Below are positions 1 to 6,346 of a stretch of DNA of 6,346 nt, in pieces (positions within the stretch are counted from its first letter, which is position 1; each line of letters starts with the position of its first letter). A program made the position numbers and the translations under genes. The stretch is from a virus (lineage: Duplodnaviria; Heunggongvirae; Uroviricota; Caudoviricetes). The notes under the pieces are model-generated. The model saw only the letters and a program-made list of their open reading frames with translations, was not told the origin of the DNA and made no database searches. The stretch lies in the IMG/VR virus record IMGVR_UViG_2675903253_000005. One strand, written 5' to 3'.

Positions 1-1
1 C

Positions 2-409
2 GCTGCAGAGTCCTCAAAAAGCGCGGCGGCTACCAGTGCCGGTGCGGCGAAAACGTTAGAAACGAATGCGGCAGCGTCACAACAATCAGCAGCCACTTCT
101 GCATCCACCGCGACCACGAAAGCGTCAGAAGCTGCCACCTCAGCCCGGGATGCGTCGGCTTCAAAAGAGGCGGCAAAATCATCAGAAACGAACGCATCAT
201 CAAGCGCCAGTAGCGCAGCTTCCTCGGCGACGGCGGCTGCAAATTCTGCGAAGGCGGCCAAAACGTCCGAGACGAACGCCAGGTCTTCTGAAACGGCAGC
301 GGGACAGAGTGCCTCAGCTGCGGCAGGCTCAAAAACAGCGGCTGCGTCGTCTGCCAGCGCCGCGTCAACAAGTGCCGGGCAGGCCTCAGCCAGTGCCACC
401 GCCGCCGGN
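2..409 (+). CDS. stf: Side tail fibre (Stf-like) internal fragment from the Ala/Ser/Thr-rich shaft; no start codon in window, 3' end broken at the ambiguous base 409
   Basis: Frame-2 translation [68 protein letters not shown]... is near-identical to 1028..1436 of copy B and 2101..2512 of copy C. The apparent stop at 428-430 lies beyond the junction and belongs to the upstream flank, not to this gene. Confidence 0.8.
409..409. other. Single ambiguous base (N) at the breakpoint between shaft sequence and the stf upstream flank
   Basis: Sequence ...gccgccgg-n-ccaggtaacacag: shaft homology ends at 408 and the upstream-flank sequence (also seen at 1484) begins at 410. Confidence 0.9.
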
Positions 410-431
410 CCAGGTAACACAGTGTTATGAC

Positions 432-458
432 AGCCCGCCGGTTCAGGCGGGCTTTTTT
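432..458 (+). terminator. Rho-independent terminator directly upstream of stf
   Basis: 8-bp perfect GC-rich stem agcccgcc (432-439) / ggcgggct (446-453), 6-nt loop ggttca, then a T6 tract (453-458). Confidence 0.75.
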
Positions 459-460
459 GT

Positions 461-466
461 GGGGTG
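461..466 (+). promoter_or_regulatory. Putative Shine-Dalgarno element for stf copy B
   Basis: ggggtga immediately upstream of ATG 470. Partial match to the extended SD (GGAGGTGA); spacing is short. Confidence 0.4.
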
Positions 467-469
467 AAT

Positions 470-1461
470 ATGGCAGTAAAGATTTCAGGTGTACTGAAAG
501 ACGGCACAGGAAAACCGGTACAGAACTGCACAATCCAGCTGAAAGCAAAACGTAACAGCACCACGGTGGTGGTGAACACGCTGGCCTCAGAAAATCCGGA
601 TGAAGCCGGGCGTTACAGCATGGACGTTGAGTACGGTCAGTACAGCGTTATTCTGTTGGTGGAAGGATTCCCGCCGTCACATGCCGGGACCATCACCGTG
701 TATGAAGATTCCCGACCCGGTACGCTGAATGATTTTCTCGGTGCCATGACGGAGGATGATGCCCGTCCGGAGGCACTGCGCCGTTTTGAGCTGATGGTGG
801 AAGAGGTGGCGCGTAACGCGTCCGCGGTGGCACAGAACACGGCAGCCGCGAAGAAATCAGCCAGCGATGCCAGCACATCAGCCCGTGAGGCGGCAACCCA
901 TGCGACTGATGCTGCAGATTCAGCACGTGCAGCCAGCACGTCAGCCGGACAGGCCGCTTCGTCGGCTCAGTCAGCGTCTTCCAGCGCAGGAACGGCATCA
1001 ACAAAGGCCACTGAAGCATCAAAAAGTGCTGCCGCTGCAGAGTCCTCAAAAAGCGCGGCGGCCACCAGTGCCGGTGCGGCGAAAACGTCAGAAACGAATG
1101 CTGCAGCGTCACAAAAATCAGCAGCCACTTCTGCATCCACTGCGACAACGAAAGCGTCAGAAGCCGCCACTTCAGCCAGAGATGCGGCGGCCTCCAAAGA
1201 GGCGGCAAAATCATCAGAAACGAACGCATCATCAAGCGCCAGTAGCGCAGCTTCCTCGGCGACGGCGGCTGCAAATTCTGCGAAGGCGGCCAAAACGTCC
1301 GAGACGAACGCCAGGTCTTCTGAAACGGCAGCGGGACAGAGTGCCTCAGCTGCGGCAGGCTCAAAAACAGCGGCTGCGTCGTCTGCCAGCGCCGCGTCAA
1401 CAAGTGCCGGGCAGGCCTCAGCCAGTGCCACCGCCGCCGGAAAATCGGCAGAAAGCGCCGC
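470..1461 (+). CDS. stf: Side tail fibre protein Stf, 5' portion (copy B); truncated by the N-run at 1462
   Basis: ATG 470 gives [36 protein letters not shown]..., which matches my recollection of the lambda Stf N-terminus. The ORF track starts at the in-frame GTG 464; ATG 470 is preferred. About 95% identical to the same region of copy C by eye. Confidence 0.85.
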
Positions 1462-1483
1462 NNNNNNNNNNNNNNNNNNNNNC
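1462..1483. other. 22-nt run of N (scaffold gap or masked junction)
   Basis: Literal n characters. Flanked on the left by shaft sequence (equivalent to copy C position 2541) and on the right by the stf upstream flank. Confidence 0.95.
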
Positions 1484-1504
1484 CAGGTAACACAGTGTTA
1501 TGAC

Positions 1505-1531
1505 AGCCCGCCGGTTCAGGCGGGCTTTTTT
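1505..1531 (+). terminator. Rho-independent terminator directly upstream of stf (second copy of 432..458)
   Basis: Identical hairpin agcccgcc/ggcgggct with loop ggttca and T6 tract, ending 12 nt before ATG 1543. Confidence 0.75.
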
Positions 1532-1533
1532 GT

Positions 1534-1539
1534 GGGGTG
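1534..1539 (+). promoter_or_regulatory. Putative Shine-Dalgarno element for stf copy C
   Basis: ggggtga upstream of ATG 1543; same sequence as 461..466. Confidence 0.4.
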
Positions 1540-1542
1540 AAT

Positions 1543-4500
1543 ATGGCAGTAAAGATTTCAGGTGTACTGAAAGACGGCACAGGAAAACCGGTACAGAACT
1601 GCACAATCCAGCTGAAAGCAAAACGTAACAGCACCACGGTGGTGGTGAACACGCTGGCCTCAGAAAATCCGGATGAAGCCGGGCGTTACAGCATGGACGT
1701 TGAGTACGGTCAGTACAGCGTTATTCTGTTGGTGGAAGGATTCCCGCCGTCACATGCCGGGACCATCACTGTGTATGAAGATTCCCGACCCGGTACGCTG
1801 AATGATTTTCTCGGTGCCATGACGGAGGATGATGCCCGTCCGGAGGCTCTGCGCCGTTTTGAACTGATGGTGGAAGAGGTGGCGCGTAACGCGTCCGCGG
1901 TGGCACAGAACACGGCAGCCGCGAAGAAGTCAGCCAGTGATGCCGGCACATCTGCCCGTGAGGCGGCAACCCATGCGACTGATGCTGCAGGCTCAGCGCG
2001 TGCAGCCAGCACGTCAGCCGGACAGGCCGCGACTTCGGCTCAGGAGGCGTCTTCCAGCGCAGGAACGGCATCAACAAAGGCCACTGAAGCATCAAAAAGT
2101 GCTGCCGCTGCAGAGTCCTCAAAAAGCGCGGCGGCCACCAGTGCCGGTGCGGCGAAAACGTCAGAAACGAATGCTGCAGCGTCACAAAAATCAGCAGCCA
2201 CTTCTGCATCCACTGCGACAACGAAAGCGTCAGAAGCCGCCACTTCAGCCAGAGATGCGGCGGCCTCCAAAGAGGCGGCAAAATCATCAGAAACGAACGC
2301 CTCCACAAGCGCCAGCAGTGCAGCCTCCTCGGCAACGGCGGCAGGAAATTCCGTGAAGGCGGCAAAAACGTCCGAGACGAATGCTAAGTCTTCTGAAACG
2401 GCAGCGGAACAGAGCGCCTCAGCTGCGGCAGACTCTGAGACAGCAGCTGCATCATCGGCCCGTGAGGCGTCCATTAAGGCAGAGGAGGCAGCAGTCAGTG
2501 CCACCGCCGCCGGAAAATCGGCAGAAAGCGCCGCATCATCCGCTTCAACAGCCACAACGAAGGCTGGCGAAGCCACTGAGCAGGCCACGGCAGCAGCGAG
2601 GTCAGCTTCCGCAGCGAAGACATCCGAAACGAACGCGAAAGCGTCGGAAACCCGTGCAGAATCCTCAAAAACGGCTGGCGCATCGTCCGCCAGTTCGGCG
2701 GCGTCATCGGCATCATCGGCGTCTGCTTCAAAAGATGAGGCGACCAGACAGGCGTCAGCAGCGAAGGGCAGCGCCACGACGGCATCCACGAAGGCGACAG
2801 AGGCTGCTGGTAGTGCGACGGCAGCAGCTCAGAGCAAAAGTACGGCGGAATCTGCAGCAACGCGCGCTGAGACAGCGGCAAAACGGGCAGAGGATATTGC
2901 ATCCGCCGTGGCGCTTGAGGATGCGAGCACGACGAAAAAGGGGATAGTACAGCTCAGTAGTGCGACTAACAGCACTTCCGAGTCACTGGCGGCAACGCCA
3001 AAAGCCGTTAAGGCCGCGTATGACCTGGCTAACGGGAAATACACCGCACAGGATGCAACGACAGCACAGAAAGGGATAATCCAGCTAAGCAGCGCGACCA
3101 ACAGCACGTCTGAAACGCTGGCGGCAACGCCAAAGGCAGTAAAAGCAGCCAATGACAATGCTGAGAAACGTCTGCAGAAAGATCAGAACGGTGCGGATAT
3201 CCCTGGCAAAGACACCTTTACGAAAAATATTGGTGCCTGCCGTGCCTTCGGTGGGTCAGTAAGCACAACAACAGGAAACTGGACGACTGCACAGTTTATC
3301 GAGTGGCTGGATTCTCAGGGAGCATTTAACCATCCATACTGGATGTGCAAGGGTTCCTGGTCTTATGGCAATAATAAAATCATTACTGATACTGGCTGCG
3401 GTAATATTCATCTCGCCGGAGCTGTCATTGAAGTAATGGGGATAAAGTCAGCGATGACGATCCGCATTACCACTCCGACCACATCCAGCGGTGGCGGAAC
3501 AACCAACGCCCAGTTTACCTATATTAATCACGGAACAGATTATTCACCTGGCTGGCGAAGGGACTATAACTCCAGAAATAAGCCAACGGCATCAGAGATC
3601 GGGGCGCTACCGTCAGGTGGAACAGCAGTATCATCAGTTAATCTGGCTTCAAAAGGTCGGGTAGCCGCGCTGACAGACAATACGCAGGGGGCAGCAGGTC
3701 TTGAGTTATACGAGGTGTATAACAACGGATATCCAACAGCGTATGGAAATATCATTCACCTGAAAGGGATGACAGCCGTTGGCGAAGGTGAGTTACTCAT
3801 CGGCTGGAGTGGTACAAGCGGTGCTCATGCTCCGGCATTTATTCGTTCACGACGGGATACGACCGACGCAAACTGGTCGCCGTGGGCGCAGCTTTACACC
3901 TCGGCTCATCCTCCTGCAGAGTTTTATCCAGTCGGTGCACCAATCCCGTGGCCATCAGATACCGTTCCGTCTGGTTATGCCCTGATGCAGGGGCAGACTT
4001 TTGACAAATCTGCTTACCCGAAACTTGCAGCCGCTTATCCGTCAGGCGTGATCCCTGATATGCGTGGCTGGACGATTAAGGGCAAGCCCGCCAGTGGTCG
4101 TGCCGTATTGTCTCAGGAACAGGATGGCATTAAATCGCACACCCACAGCGCCAGCGCATCCAGTACGGATTTGGGGACGAAAACCACATCGTCGTTTGAT
4201 TACGGCACTAAATCCACGAATAACACCGGGGCGCATACGCACAGTCTGAGCGGCTCTACAAGTTCAGCTGGGGCCCACCAACATAGTCAGACTGGGCCCA
4301 GAACGAATAGCGGGAGTCAACCTACTGGAATGTTTCCGGCAGGGAGTACTCAAGTTAGCGGGACTAATCAGGTTGGTATCAGTGGCTCATTAACCAGTGG
4401 CACCTCCCAATGGGTAGGTAAATCATCTTCAGAAGGAAACCATACACACTCACTGTCCGGCACAGCAGCATCTGCGGGTGCACACGCGCATACTGTCGGT

Positions 4501-4626
4501 ATTGGTGCTCATACGCACTCTGTTGCGATTGGTTCACATGGACACACCATCACCGTTAACGCTGCTGGTAACGCGGAAAACACCGTCAAAAACATCGCAT
4601 TTAACTATATTGTGAGGCTCGCATAA
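1543..4626 (+). CDS. stf: Side tail fibre protein Stf, full length (1027 codons): N-terminal tail-attachment region, Ala/Ser/Thr-rich shaft, two phage fibre repeats, receptor-binding domain, His-box (HxH) tip
   Basis: Uninterrupted ORF from ATG 1543 to TAA 4624-4626. N-terminus [20 protein letters not shown]... and C-terminus ...[29 protein letters not shown] match my recollection of lambda Stf. [23 protein letters not shown] fibre repeats are present. Seven HxH motifs lie in the C-terminal 140 residues. Confidence 0.9.
1900..2930 (+). repeat. Low-complexity Ala/Ser/Thr-rich shaft region with degenerate repeats (recurrent K(T/S)SETNA and SAAA/TSA motifs)
   Basis: The protein is dominated by A/S/T/K/E here. 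SETNA recurs at about 2161, 2287, 2371 and 2626. The GCN-rich codons create long spurious antisense ORFs. Confidence 0.7.
2938..3150 (+). repeat. Two tandem phage tail-fibre repeats within stf copy C (one 44-aa unit plus one core unit)
   Basis: [44 protein letters not shown] (2938..3069) followed by [29 protein letters not shown] (3070..3150). This is the conserved fibre-repeat motif shared by lambda Stf, P2 H and Mu S-type fibres. Confidence 0.8.
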
Positions 4627-4649
4627 TGGCATTCAGAATGAGTGAACAA
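4626..4649 (+). CDS. tfa: Tail fibre assembly protein Tfa, first 8 codons only (MAFRMSEQ), then broken at the ambiguous base 4650
   Basis: ATG 4626-4628 overlaps the stf stop (TAATG). MAFRMSEQ matches my recollection of the lambda Tfa N-terminus. After n4650 the sequence is mid-stf shaft, not tfa. Confidence 0.6.
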
Positions 4650-4650
4650 N
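4650..4650. other. Single ambiguous base (N) at the breakpoint between the tfa 5' end and mid-stf shaft sequence
   Basis: ...agtgaacaa-n-gggcagcgccacgacgg: tfa-like sequence ends at 4649, and from 4652 the sequence parallels copy C from 2767. Confidence 0.9.
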
Positions 4651-4651
4651 G

Positions 4652-6346
4652 GGCAGCGCCACGACGGCATCCACGAAGGCGACAGAGGCTGCTGGCAGTG
4701 CGGCAGCGGCAGCACAGAGCAAAAGTACGGCGGAATCCGCGGCAACGCGCGCCGAGACAGCAGCAAAACGGGCAGAGGATATTGCATCCGCCGTGGCGCT
4801 TGAGGATGCGAGCACGACGAAAAAGGGGATAGTACAGCTCAGTAGTGCGACTAACAGCACTTCCGAGTCACTGGCGGCAACGCCAAAAGCCGTTAAGGCC
4901 GCGTATGACCTGGCTAACGGGAAATACACCGCACAGGATGCAACGACAGCACAGAAAGGGATAGTTCAGCTCAGCAGTGCGACTAACAGCACTTCCGAGT
5001 CACAGGCGGCAACGCCAAAAGCCGTTAAGGCCGCGTATGACCTGGCTAACGGGAAATACACCGCACAGGACGCTACGACAGCACAAAAAGGAATTGTCCA
5101 GCTCAGTAGTGCAACCAACAGCACATCTGAAACGCTTGCTGCGACACCGAAAGCAGTGAAAGCAGCTAATGACAATGCGAATGGTCGGGTACCTTCTGCC
5201 CGTAAGGTGAATGGTAAGGCGCTTTCAGCGGATATAACACTGACGCCGAAAGATATTGGTACGCTTAACTCAACAACAATGTCATTCAGCGGTGGTGCTG
5301 GTTGGTTCAAATTAGCAACGGTAACCATGCCACAGGCGAGTTCTGTTGTTTCAATTACGTTGATTGGTGGCGCTGGATTTAACGTGGGGTCACCTCAACA
5401 GGCAGGTATATCTGAACTTGTTTTACGTGCAGGTAATGGTAATCCGAAGGGGATTACTGGTGCTTTATGGCAGCGCACATTGACAGGGTTTACAAATTTT
5501 GCCTGGGTTAATACATCTGGTGATACTTACGATATTTACGTTGCAATCGGAAATTATGCGACTGGTGTAAATATTCAATGGGATTATACCAGTAATGCCA
5601 GCGTGACGATTCATACGTCACCAGCATATTCTGCTAATAAGCCGGAAGGGTTAACGGACGGTACAGTTTATTCACTCTATACGCCATCAGAGCAGTTTTA
5701 TCCGCCTGGCGCACCAATCCCGTGGCCATCAGATACCGTTCCGTCTGGCTATGCCCTGATGCAGGGGCAGGCTTTTGACAAATCTGCATACCCGAAACTT
5801 GCAGCGGCTTATCCGTCAGGCGTGATCCCTGATATGCGTGGCTGGACGATTAAGGGCAAGCCCGCCAGTGGTCGTGCCGTATTGTCTCAGGAACAGGATG
5901 GCATTAAATCGCACACCCACAGCGCCAGCGCATCCAGTACGGATTTGGGGACGAAAACCACATCGTCGTTTGATTACGGCACTAAATCCACGAATAACAC
6001 TGGTGCGCATACCCATAGTTTAAGTGGCAGCACGAATGCAGCTGGTAATCACAGCCATAGAGATGGCCGTCGATTTAACCCCAGTGTTTTTAAAGATACT
6101 TATCAATATGGTTATACAAGCTCAGGTCAAAATACCTGGGGTGTACAAGGCTCAGTAGGTATGTCTACGGGGTGGTTAGCGAATACCAGTATAGATGGTA
6201 ATCATAGCCATTCACTGTCCGGCACAGCAGCATCTGCAGGTGCACACGCGCATACTGTCGGTATTGGTGCTCATACGCACTCCGTTGCGATTGGTTCACA
6301 TGGACACACCATCACCGTTAACGCTGCTGGTAACGCGGAAAACACC
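4652..6346 (+). CDS. Stf-like side tail fibre, 3' portion of a distinct allele (copy D): shaft end, three fibre repeats, alternative receptor-binding domain, His-box tip with alternative insert; partial at both ends
   Basis: Frame-2 open reading from 4652 to the window end with no stop. The first ~170 nt parallel copy C 2767..2937. Repeats [15 protein letters not shown]... occur three times. Region 5708..6031 is near-identical to copy C 3934..4257, and 6212..6346 to 4450..4584. Confidence 0.85.
4823..5167 (+). repeat. Three tandem phage tail-fibre repeats in copy D (two 44-aa units plus one core unit)
   Basis: Units begin at K codons 4823, 4955 and 5087. Sequences are [88 protein letters not shown] and [29 protein letters not shown]. 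Confidence 0.8.

Follow-up and report, generated by a model that had tools for sequence, protein, structure and literature searches.

The succession of tail fibre genes in this stretch of DNA most probably results from false or unresolved scaffold joins over paralogous prophage stf repeats of one E. coli genome, in a short-read draft assembly. We give this reading, which is based on sequence comparisons, a probability of about 0.86. The window, i.e., the whole stretch of 6,346 bp that was analysed, is the entire contig CXFG01000234.1 of the draft WGS assembly GCA_001250555.1, and both ends of this contig fall within stf repeats. It consists of four lambda-type stf pieces, all on the plus strand and with only runs of N between them: fragment A (1-408, followed by 1 N), an intergenic flank with copy B (410-1461, followed by 21 N), a second flank with the complete stf of copy C and the first 24 nt of tfa (1483-4649, followed by 1 N), and fragment D (4651-6346, up to the contig end). 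Ambiguous bases are found at 409, 1462-1482, and 4650 and nowhere else in the window. All three joins are made of N (1, 21, and 1), and base-level continuity is found at none of them.

A previous sequence-only reading had described truncated 5' stf modules in tandem, with the same flank re-entered after N characters. This structure is indeed present, with slightly corrected coordinates. The single N of the first run stands, but the second run has 21 N instead of 22. The breakpoints do lie in the shaft, even if their exact bases differ from those initially given: in the coordinates of copy C, the end of A corresponds to 2513 by ungapped alignment (formerly 2512), the end of B (1461) to 2534 (formerly 2541), and the re-entry of D to 2766 (formerly 2767). 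These three positions cover 253 nt, in agreement with the span of about 250 nt of shaft to which the breakpoints had been attributed.

Copy C (1543-4626, plus strand) is a complete stf. Translated from the ATG at 1543, it encodes 1027 aa; a gene caller placed the start at the GTG at 1537, which gives 1029 aa. It matches the Pfam families phage_tail_N, Phage_fiber_2 (twice), and Collar, as well as the PDB structures of the Mu tail fibre S (8ju3, residues 539-723) and of the T4 gp37 tip (2xgf, residues 794-1027, E 1e-81). As in a lambda-type stf, one finds a Prophage tail fibre N-terminal domain, an Ala/Ser-rich shaft, Phage_fiber_2 repeats, a Collar, and a T4 gp37-like His-rich tip. In hundreds of finished genomes, a single stf gene with lom on one side and tfa on the other is 96-98% identical to copy C, and an exact look-up of the 1029-aa protein in a protein cluster collection gave no match. 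The stf stop codon is overlapped by the ATG of the tail fibre assembly gene tfa (TAATG), of which the first 24 nt (8 codons; 4626-4649, plus strand) are in the window, and tfa follows stf likewise in finished loci. A pin-type recombinase gene is found just 3' of tfa in finished loci of this kind. The architecture of copy C is that of the lambda-type J-lom-stf-tfa locus, represented by lambda stf/tfa and by K-12 stfR/tfaR and tfaQ of the Rac and Qin prophages, and the likeness includes the lom terminator upstream and the overlapping tfa start downstream. Relative to lambda, the window shows 87% identity across the 55% of its length that matches. The domains and the synteny in finished genomes indicate that copy C is a lambda-type side tail fibre gene, with lom itself lying outside the window. 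Yet a real lambda-type locus has one stf start, whereas the window has two starts and two headless pieces (A and D), which are joined by N only.

The two stf starts are preceded by identical copies of the lom-stf intergenic flank (410-469 and 1483-1542, both on the plus strand), with a terminator-like hairpin (432-453 and 1505-1526, respectively), a T run, and a ribosome-binding site. The identity goes beyond the flank: an exact repeat of 287 nt follows each of the first two N runs (410-696 and 1483-1769) and is composed of the 60-nt flank, including hairpin and ribosome-binding site, and the initial 227 nt of stf. In finished genomes, the flank sequence begins 4 nt past the stop codon of the Ail/Lom gene, and lom homology extends upstream of the flank start in intact loci. 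Both copies in the window begin at exactly the same base, at CCAGG, despite the homology between loci continuing into lom. This start is not the fusion point of the Qin-type terminase::stf fusions, which lies 3 nt further in, at GGTAAC.

Fragment A (1-408, plus strand) is an internal part of the Ala/Ser-rich shaft of an stf allele that begins off the contig start. It lacks a start codon, is open in frame 2 only, and revealed no Pfam family. Its ungapped alignment to B 1033-1440 shows 13 mismatches (96.8% identity), all 13 of them within 133 nt of A (31-163), and the final 245 nt of A are exactly those of B 1196-1440. The single N of the first gap (409) leads from this shaft end to the first flank copy. 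Copy B (470-1461, plus strand) comes from a second stf allele, of which it has the 5' 992 nt, with the N-terminal domain (Pfam phage_tail_N, 1-134, E 1.9e-72) and part of the shaft, and is ended by the second gap (1462-1482), whose 21 N separate the end of its shaft from the second flank copy. A 356-aa ORF called on the contig crosses these 21 N into the flank. B and C are 94.7% identical, with 56 ungapped mismatches, and share exact blocks at 410-696 (287 nt), 974-1227 (254 nt), and 1423-1461 (39 nt) in the coordinates of B. Repeats that are exact over 287 nt and about 95% identical over 1 kb rule out chance as their source. The third gap, a single N at 4650, stands between the tfa start and fragment D (4651-6346, plus strand), which belongs to a different stf allele. 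D is the 3' part of this allele, entered in the middle of the shaft at the equivalent of C 2766; it matches Phage_fiber_2 (three times) and Collar in Pfam and runs past the end of the contig.

In finished genomes, each piece continues without a break within a single, ordinary stf gene of a J-lom-stf-tfa locus, save that the best match of A is in a remnant. That match (99.3%) is a terminase::stf remnant of strain Z226-5. The best match of B (98.3%) is an intact stf of 3,279 nt in strain 64EVA, which is unbroken where A stops. More than 200 finished genomes have an intact stf gene to which D is 99.2-99.4% identical along all of its 1,696 nt. In strain SE11 it matches positions 650,266-651,961 (99.2%), which start 1,223 nt into the stf gene of that locus, the same offset as in C. 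SE11 has this D-like gene at 650 kb and a C-like gene at 2.12 Mb, in separate prophages 1.5 Mb apart, and the pattern of shared blocks recurs in three or more stf loci of this genome alone. In finished genomes, the window as a whole collapses onto a single place with a length of about 3,155 bp. Complete E. coli genomes have a median of 3 such places and a maximum of 17, so one genome suffices as the source of all four pieces.

The copies represent diverged alleles of mosaic structure, in which exact blocks alternate with allele-specific stretches, and three haplotypes cover one and the same shaft interval. Codon differences are in majority synonymous (synonymous to non-synonymous ratios of 28:19 between B and C and of 9:3 between A and B). 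Three haplotypes would also be expected if the same assembly artefact had involved stf alleles from a mixed or contaminated culture, with at least two E. coli strains or with free phages. No allele was found at 100% in finished genomes, and none of these genomes has all four alleles at about 100%, the best values (99.3% for A, 98.3% for B, 96-98% for C, and 99.4% for D) coming from different strains. This, too, would fit a mixture, whose strains the tools are unable to separate. However, a mixed culture is unnecessary when the median complete genome already has 3 matching places and when SE11 by itself has at least three loci with shared blocks, and we consider it unlikely.

The sequence-only reading had offered two alternatives, an assembly or scaffolding artefact involving several lambdoid tail fibre loci or a mixed population, and a genuine tandem amplification. 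The former is favoured by the draft status of the contig, the N joins, the diverged alleles, the separate loci of the matches, and the absence of the junctions elsewhere. The latter would consist of two truncated 5' stf modules with their own lom terminator, ribosome-binding site, and start codon, placed upstream of a full stf, and would have arisen by illegitimate or repeat-mediated recombination followed by imperfect assembly. The common strand of all pieces and the identical flank after each of the first two N runs are in line with it. Truncated and doubled stf modules do occur in finished genomes: real rearranged stf genes are known there as terminase::stf deletion fusions, the type of remnant that gave the best match of A, and SE11 has two genes with the N-terminal domain in tandem. 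In contrast with the window, these rearrangements have junctions of defined sequence, in which the partner is a terminase gene or a tfa fragment, and none of them repeats the lom-stf flank. As for the second stf of SE11, this gene has diverged and is preceded by another upstream region instead of a repeated flank, and a local blastn search (word size 11) revealed no similarity between it and the window at the DNA level. On every point that can be judged from the sequence, the evidence goes against a tandem amplification. The joins in the window have no defined junction base, and the first two occur at different shaft positions instead of sharing one novel junction: A stops at the equivalent of B 1440, and B goes on for 21 nt before its 21 N. 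The units have diverged by 3-5%, mostly by synonymous changes, which argues against a recent amplification. Furthermore, the record is a draft scaffold of 6.3 kb with repeats bounding both of its ends.

None of the junctions recurred in the collections against which it was searched. These were of five kinds: complete E. coli genomes (5,426), phage records (50,697), species-representative genomes (185,579), metagenome records (241 million), and viral contigs (2.9 million). Alignments crossing junctions 1, 2, or 3 were absent from the complete E. coli genomes, as were alignments spanning junction 1 from the phage records; the order shaft then flank was found in 0 of 5,426 genomes and in 0 of 50,697 phage records. 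The exact pattern of junction 1 (with N as any base) had 0 matches in the genome, metagenome, and viral contig collections, and that of junction 3 had 0 matches in viral contigs, the only collection concerned; in these scans of contigs it is uncertain whether an N in a stored record can match, and the zeros cannot be read as absence of the source record. In six places of complete E. coli genomes, the two sides of junction 2 were found in one BLAST place. The two that were checked (A25 and SE11) are both short-shaft stf genes in which the flank comes first and the shaft lies downstream, and they were rejected as real joins. It is in our view very improbable that the isolate has a direct array of two truncated stf 5' modules without promoters, possibly a recombination reservoir of shaft variants, whose junction bases were missed by the assembler. 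Biological interest would be limited to a genuine array, which might store shaft variants, but nothing here supports one.

Tail fibre genes are classical targets of programmed diversification, either by invertible cassettes, such as the Mu G, P1 C, and e14 P segments, or by diversity-generating retroelements with a template and a variable repeat, and the pin-type recombinase gene that immediately follows tfa in the finished loci mentioned above might suggest such a system. Yet the window lacks inverted repeats of at least 18 nt, and its copies are direct throughout. What is repeated is the constant 5' module instead of the 3' end that binds the receptor. The copies differ by substitutions of every type, which are not adenine-specific and are mostly synonymous. 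Finally, we found no recombinase or reverse transcriptase ORF within the window. The lack of inverted repeats and the mixed types of substitution led us to reject both forms of diversification, which now seem extremely improbable.

The reading that we retain, that of scaffold joins over paralogous stf repeats, can be given a tentative mechanism. Four contig pieces, from stf genes of different lambdoid prophages or remnants of one E. coli genome, would have been chained as a scaffold. Given the exact blocks of 39-287 nt that the loci have in common, read pairs of one locus would also fit the contigs of another. We infer that a greedy scaffolder and a gap filler tied each piece to the contig holding the sole assembled copy of the shared continuation, and minimal N gaps would have been inserted wherever an overlap was not found. 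A could thus have been linked to B, which holds its final 245 nt and 21 more, B to C, which holds the shaft past the end of B, and C to D, which carries on from a block present in C. There would be no biological restart, and the true units would be ordinary J-lom-stf-tfa loci. The gaps, the draft origin, the divergence of the copies, and the lack of the junctions in other records are observed, whereas we infer the identity of the software as well as the exact linking path; our attribution of the record to a Velvet/SSPACE/GapFiller pipeline is guesswork, prompted by the ENA-style accession prefix. In published descriptions of that widely used pipeline, its own authors warn that greedy joining may be false, N are written at joins, gap edges are extended base by base, and repeat gaps stay open (PMC5320598, PMC3446322).

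The window shares with the joins of short-read E. coli drafts at multi-copy prophage genes its draft status, the N at joins, breakpoints at the borders of exact repeats between paralogues, and open repeat gaps (PMC5320598, PMC3446322). The duplicated exact block of 287 nt and the identical start base of the flank, on the other hand, lack a detailed account in these terms. A plain de Bruijn graph would not give an exact repeat of 287 nt twice with the same start base, and the artefact therefore needs duplication of the repeat or extension of edges in later steps. Similarly, a simple paired-end model yields no obvious link from the shaft end to the flank start. These points count against the artefact, and so does the fact that none of the four alleles occurs at 100% in a finished genome, where the real loci of the strain would be directly visible.

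The significance of these results is mainly that of a warning: draft E. coli contigs with N can chain pieces of paralogous prophage tail fibre genes. Gene callers read through such gaps, and records of this kind can introduce false truncated or fused tail fibre proteins into databases and give rise to false reports of tandem modules.

Three runs of N (a single N at 409, 21 N at 1462-1482, and a single N at 4650) split the window into four pieces, all on the plus strand, and none of its 6,346 bases outside these runs is ambiguous. Piece A (1-408) codes for Ala/Ser-rich shaft of the side tail fibre (stf) in frame 2, its sole open frame, and has no start codon. The second piece (410-1461) opens with a 60-nt lom-stf intergenic flank, containing a terminator-like hairpin (432-453, plus a T run) and a ribosome-binding site, and continues with B, the first 992 nt of an stf gene (Pfam Prophage tail fibre N-terminal domain, E 1.9e-72). 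The third (1483-4649) consists of the same flank, the complete stf gene C (1543-4626, 1027 aa), and the 5' 24 nt of tfa, which starts with an ATG overlapping the stop codon of stf. Finally, D (4651-6346), the 3' portion of a further stf allele, is cut off by the end of the window. The sequence-only reading had described pieces that restart through N and the same flank, and this layout is borne out: the 287 nt following the first two N runs (410-696 and 1483-1769) are identical. Its count of 22 N at the second gap should be 21, and its breakpoints, given as C equivalents 2512, 2541, and 2767, slipped slightly. We measured 2534 for the end of B and 2766 for the start of D, and the ungapped alignment of A with B 1033-1440 (13 mismatches, 96.8%) places the end of A at 2513.

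C itself is unremarkable: a mosaic side tail fibre gene of the lambda type. Its residues 539-723 match the Mu tail fibre protein S (8ju3), and residues 794-1027 match the receptor-binding tip of T4 gp37 (PDB 2xgf, E 1e-81). C and D have in common the collar region (approximately 96%) and the last 154 nt, and differ in the stretch between. Both have His-rich C-terminal tips (3922-4623 and 5700-6346, respectively) with repeated G-x-H-x-H-S/T motifs. The 132-nt (44-aa) Phage_fiber_2 repeat is present in three copies in D versus two in C, matching the number of Pfam stretches (TRF: period 132, 2.3 copies, 91% match; repeats at 4821-5124 and 2925-3170).

The differences between the copies are unevenly distributed. 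All 13 mismatches between A and B lie within A 31-163, and the final 245 nt of A equal B 1196-1440 exactly. B and C are identical over 410-696 (287 nt), 974-1227 (254 nt), and 1423-1461 (39 nt), with dense differences between these blocks, above all at 1228-1422. Where A departs from B, B agrees with C; in the next interval A agrees with B and both are unlike C. This alternation implies at least three mosaic haplotypes in the window. The substitutions are of all types and mainly synonymous (28 synonymous versus 19 non-synonymous codons for B/C, 9 versus 3 for A/B), which is the pattern of old, selected alleles, as in different lambdoid prophages. Mosaic, mostly synonymous differences of all types rule out a recent amplification. 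An invertible cassette or a retroelement has next to no probability as the source of the variants: substitutions of all types contradict adenine-directed mutagenesis, and the window contains no inverted repeats of at least 18 nt. The longer exact B/C blocks (254-287 nt) probably exceed the reads, making variant phasing in B and C insecure. None of 5,426 complete E. coli genomes has a full-length match to C at ≥99%; its 5' 1,544 nt are 98.4% identical to strain TB06052 and its 3' 1,581 nt 98.6% identical to Z1323HEC0016. Either C is mosaic by nature or part of it is mis-phased.

In these 5,426 genomes, the whole window falls onto one place of ~3,155 bp, annotated as a tail fibre gene plus tfa, and the median genome has 3 places matching the window (maximum 17). 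More than 200 genomes have an intact stf gene that matches D over its full 1,696 nt, at 99.2%-99.4%. Strain 64EVA has an intact stf of 3,279 nt whose 5' part is 98.3% identical to B, and the best match of A (99.3%) is an stf remnant fused with a terminase gene in Z226-5. In SE11, D starts 1,223 nt into its stf gene, at an offset equal to that in C, and a gene resembling both C and B is found 1.5 Mb away, in a different prophage. The gene order J, lom, stf, tfa is annotated at all intact loci inspected, and in the four that we read (Z1323HEC0016, A25, SE11 at 650 kb, and 64EVA) the flank (CCAGGTAAC...) starts 4 nt past the Ail/Lom stop codon. A mixed culture, rather than several prophages, might have supplied the stf alleles. 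We regard this as improbable, because a typical genome already has at least three stf places and a second strain is superfluous. Finished loci of the same type at the ydfJ (Qin) site carry a Pin-family recombinase gene ~100 nt 3' of tfa, on the opposite strand (L002 7678-8268, L004 [TB06052] 5316-5906, L005 6411-7001), leaving too little space for an alternative cassette in inverted orientation. This gene seems to be what is left of an invertible tail-fibre segment.

We searched the complete E. coli genomes with 200 nt centred on each gap, and for none of the three junctions did a single alignment cross the gap. Both halves of the shaft-to-flank joins (junctions 1 and 2) occur in one place in only six genomes, ~716-750 bp apart. 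The two that we inspected, A25 and SE11, have the flank first and the shaft piece downstream; their stf genes are normal apart from a shorter shaft. For junction 3, both halves occur in one place in five genomes; in TB06052, the one compared locally, the sequence that opens D precedes the end of stf and the start of tfa, whereas in the window it follows them. In 50,697 phage records, the two halves of junction 1 never occur in one place, and its exact pattern has no match in species-representative genomes, metagenome contigs, or viral contigs. That of junction 3 has none in viral contigs, the only collection scanned for it.

Finished genomes do contain rearranged stf genes, with defined junctions unlike the N joins of the window. 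Deletions fused the terminase large-subunit gene to stf in TB06052 (L004 2723) and Z226-5 (L006 3853). The fusion point of one is 3 nt into the flank, at GGTAACAC; that of the second is 415 nt into stf (the equivalent of window 885), and this gene is annotated as a single frameshifted 'terminase' CDS and carries the best match to A. The SE11 double locus (L010; NC_011415.1 1,732,000-1,750,000, record 1,740,294-1,749,569, minus strand) carries a tandem pair of 'prophage tail fiber N-terminal domain' genes and reads J, lom, stf pseudogene, tail fibre domain protein, tfa fragment, divergent stf (590 aa), DUF4376, and truncated ydfJ. Its second stf has a different upstream region and shows no DNA similarity to the window.

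The simplest account, to which we give a probability of about 0.86, is that the window is a scaffold chaining contigs from paralogous prophage stf genes. An exact-product look-up found the C protein, in its GTG-start form, in a single record (GCA_001250555.1, CXFG01000234.1, range 1-6346); the window therefore corresponds to an entire contig from a draft whole-genome shotgun assembly, one that begins and ends within stf repeats. Read and insert lengths are of the same order as the blocks shared exactly (39-287 nt), so that reads of one locus would fit contigs of another. Each piece would then precede the contig with the sole assembled copy of the sequence that continues it: the final 245 nt of A, with a further 21 nt, are in B; the shaft past the end of B is in C; and D picks up from a 45-nt block in C. 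Such links would imply overlapping contigs without end-to-end overlap, for which scaffolders would write a minimal gap. A common pipeline for bacterial drafts submitted to ENA runs Velvet, SSPACE, and GapFiller; its authors note that the tools are greedy, that false joins are possible, and that joins are written as N and gap edges then extended (PMC5320598). GapFiller extends edges base by base, with a majority vote at allelic differences, and the gaps remaining open are mostly in repeats (PMC3446322). The accession style suggests that this record may have been made in that way.

Both flank copies (410 and 1483) start at the same base, CCAGG. Since homology between the loci runs upstream into lom, a simple branching of the assembly graph does not account for this shared start, and for an exact 287-nt block to be present twice, a repeat must have been duplicated or an edge extended in a step after the graph. 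These two features, and the difficulty of deriving a concrete read-pair path from shaft end to flank start, leave a small chance of real structure. A genuine tandem array of stf modules is very unlikely: the join positions differ, the copies are 3%-5% diverged, the junction bases are undefined, and the junctions do not recur elsewhere. Of the two explanations first offered, scaffolding artefact or tandem amplification of a 5' stf module, these points weigh against the second, and the first is favoured by the diverged alleles, the N joins, the draft source, and the failure to find the junctions elsewhere. The layout of the window is thus in all likelihood not a real feature.

Two gene calls on the contig cross its gaps: 470-1540 gives a 356-residue product that continues across the 21 N to reach the flank, and 4626-4832 a 68-residue product that crosses the single N at 4650. 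Both products are spurious outcomes of the scaffold, and the 356-residue read-through shows directly how scaffolds of this kind yield false proteins.
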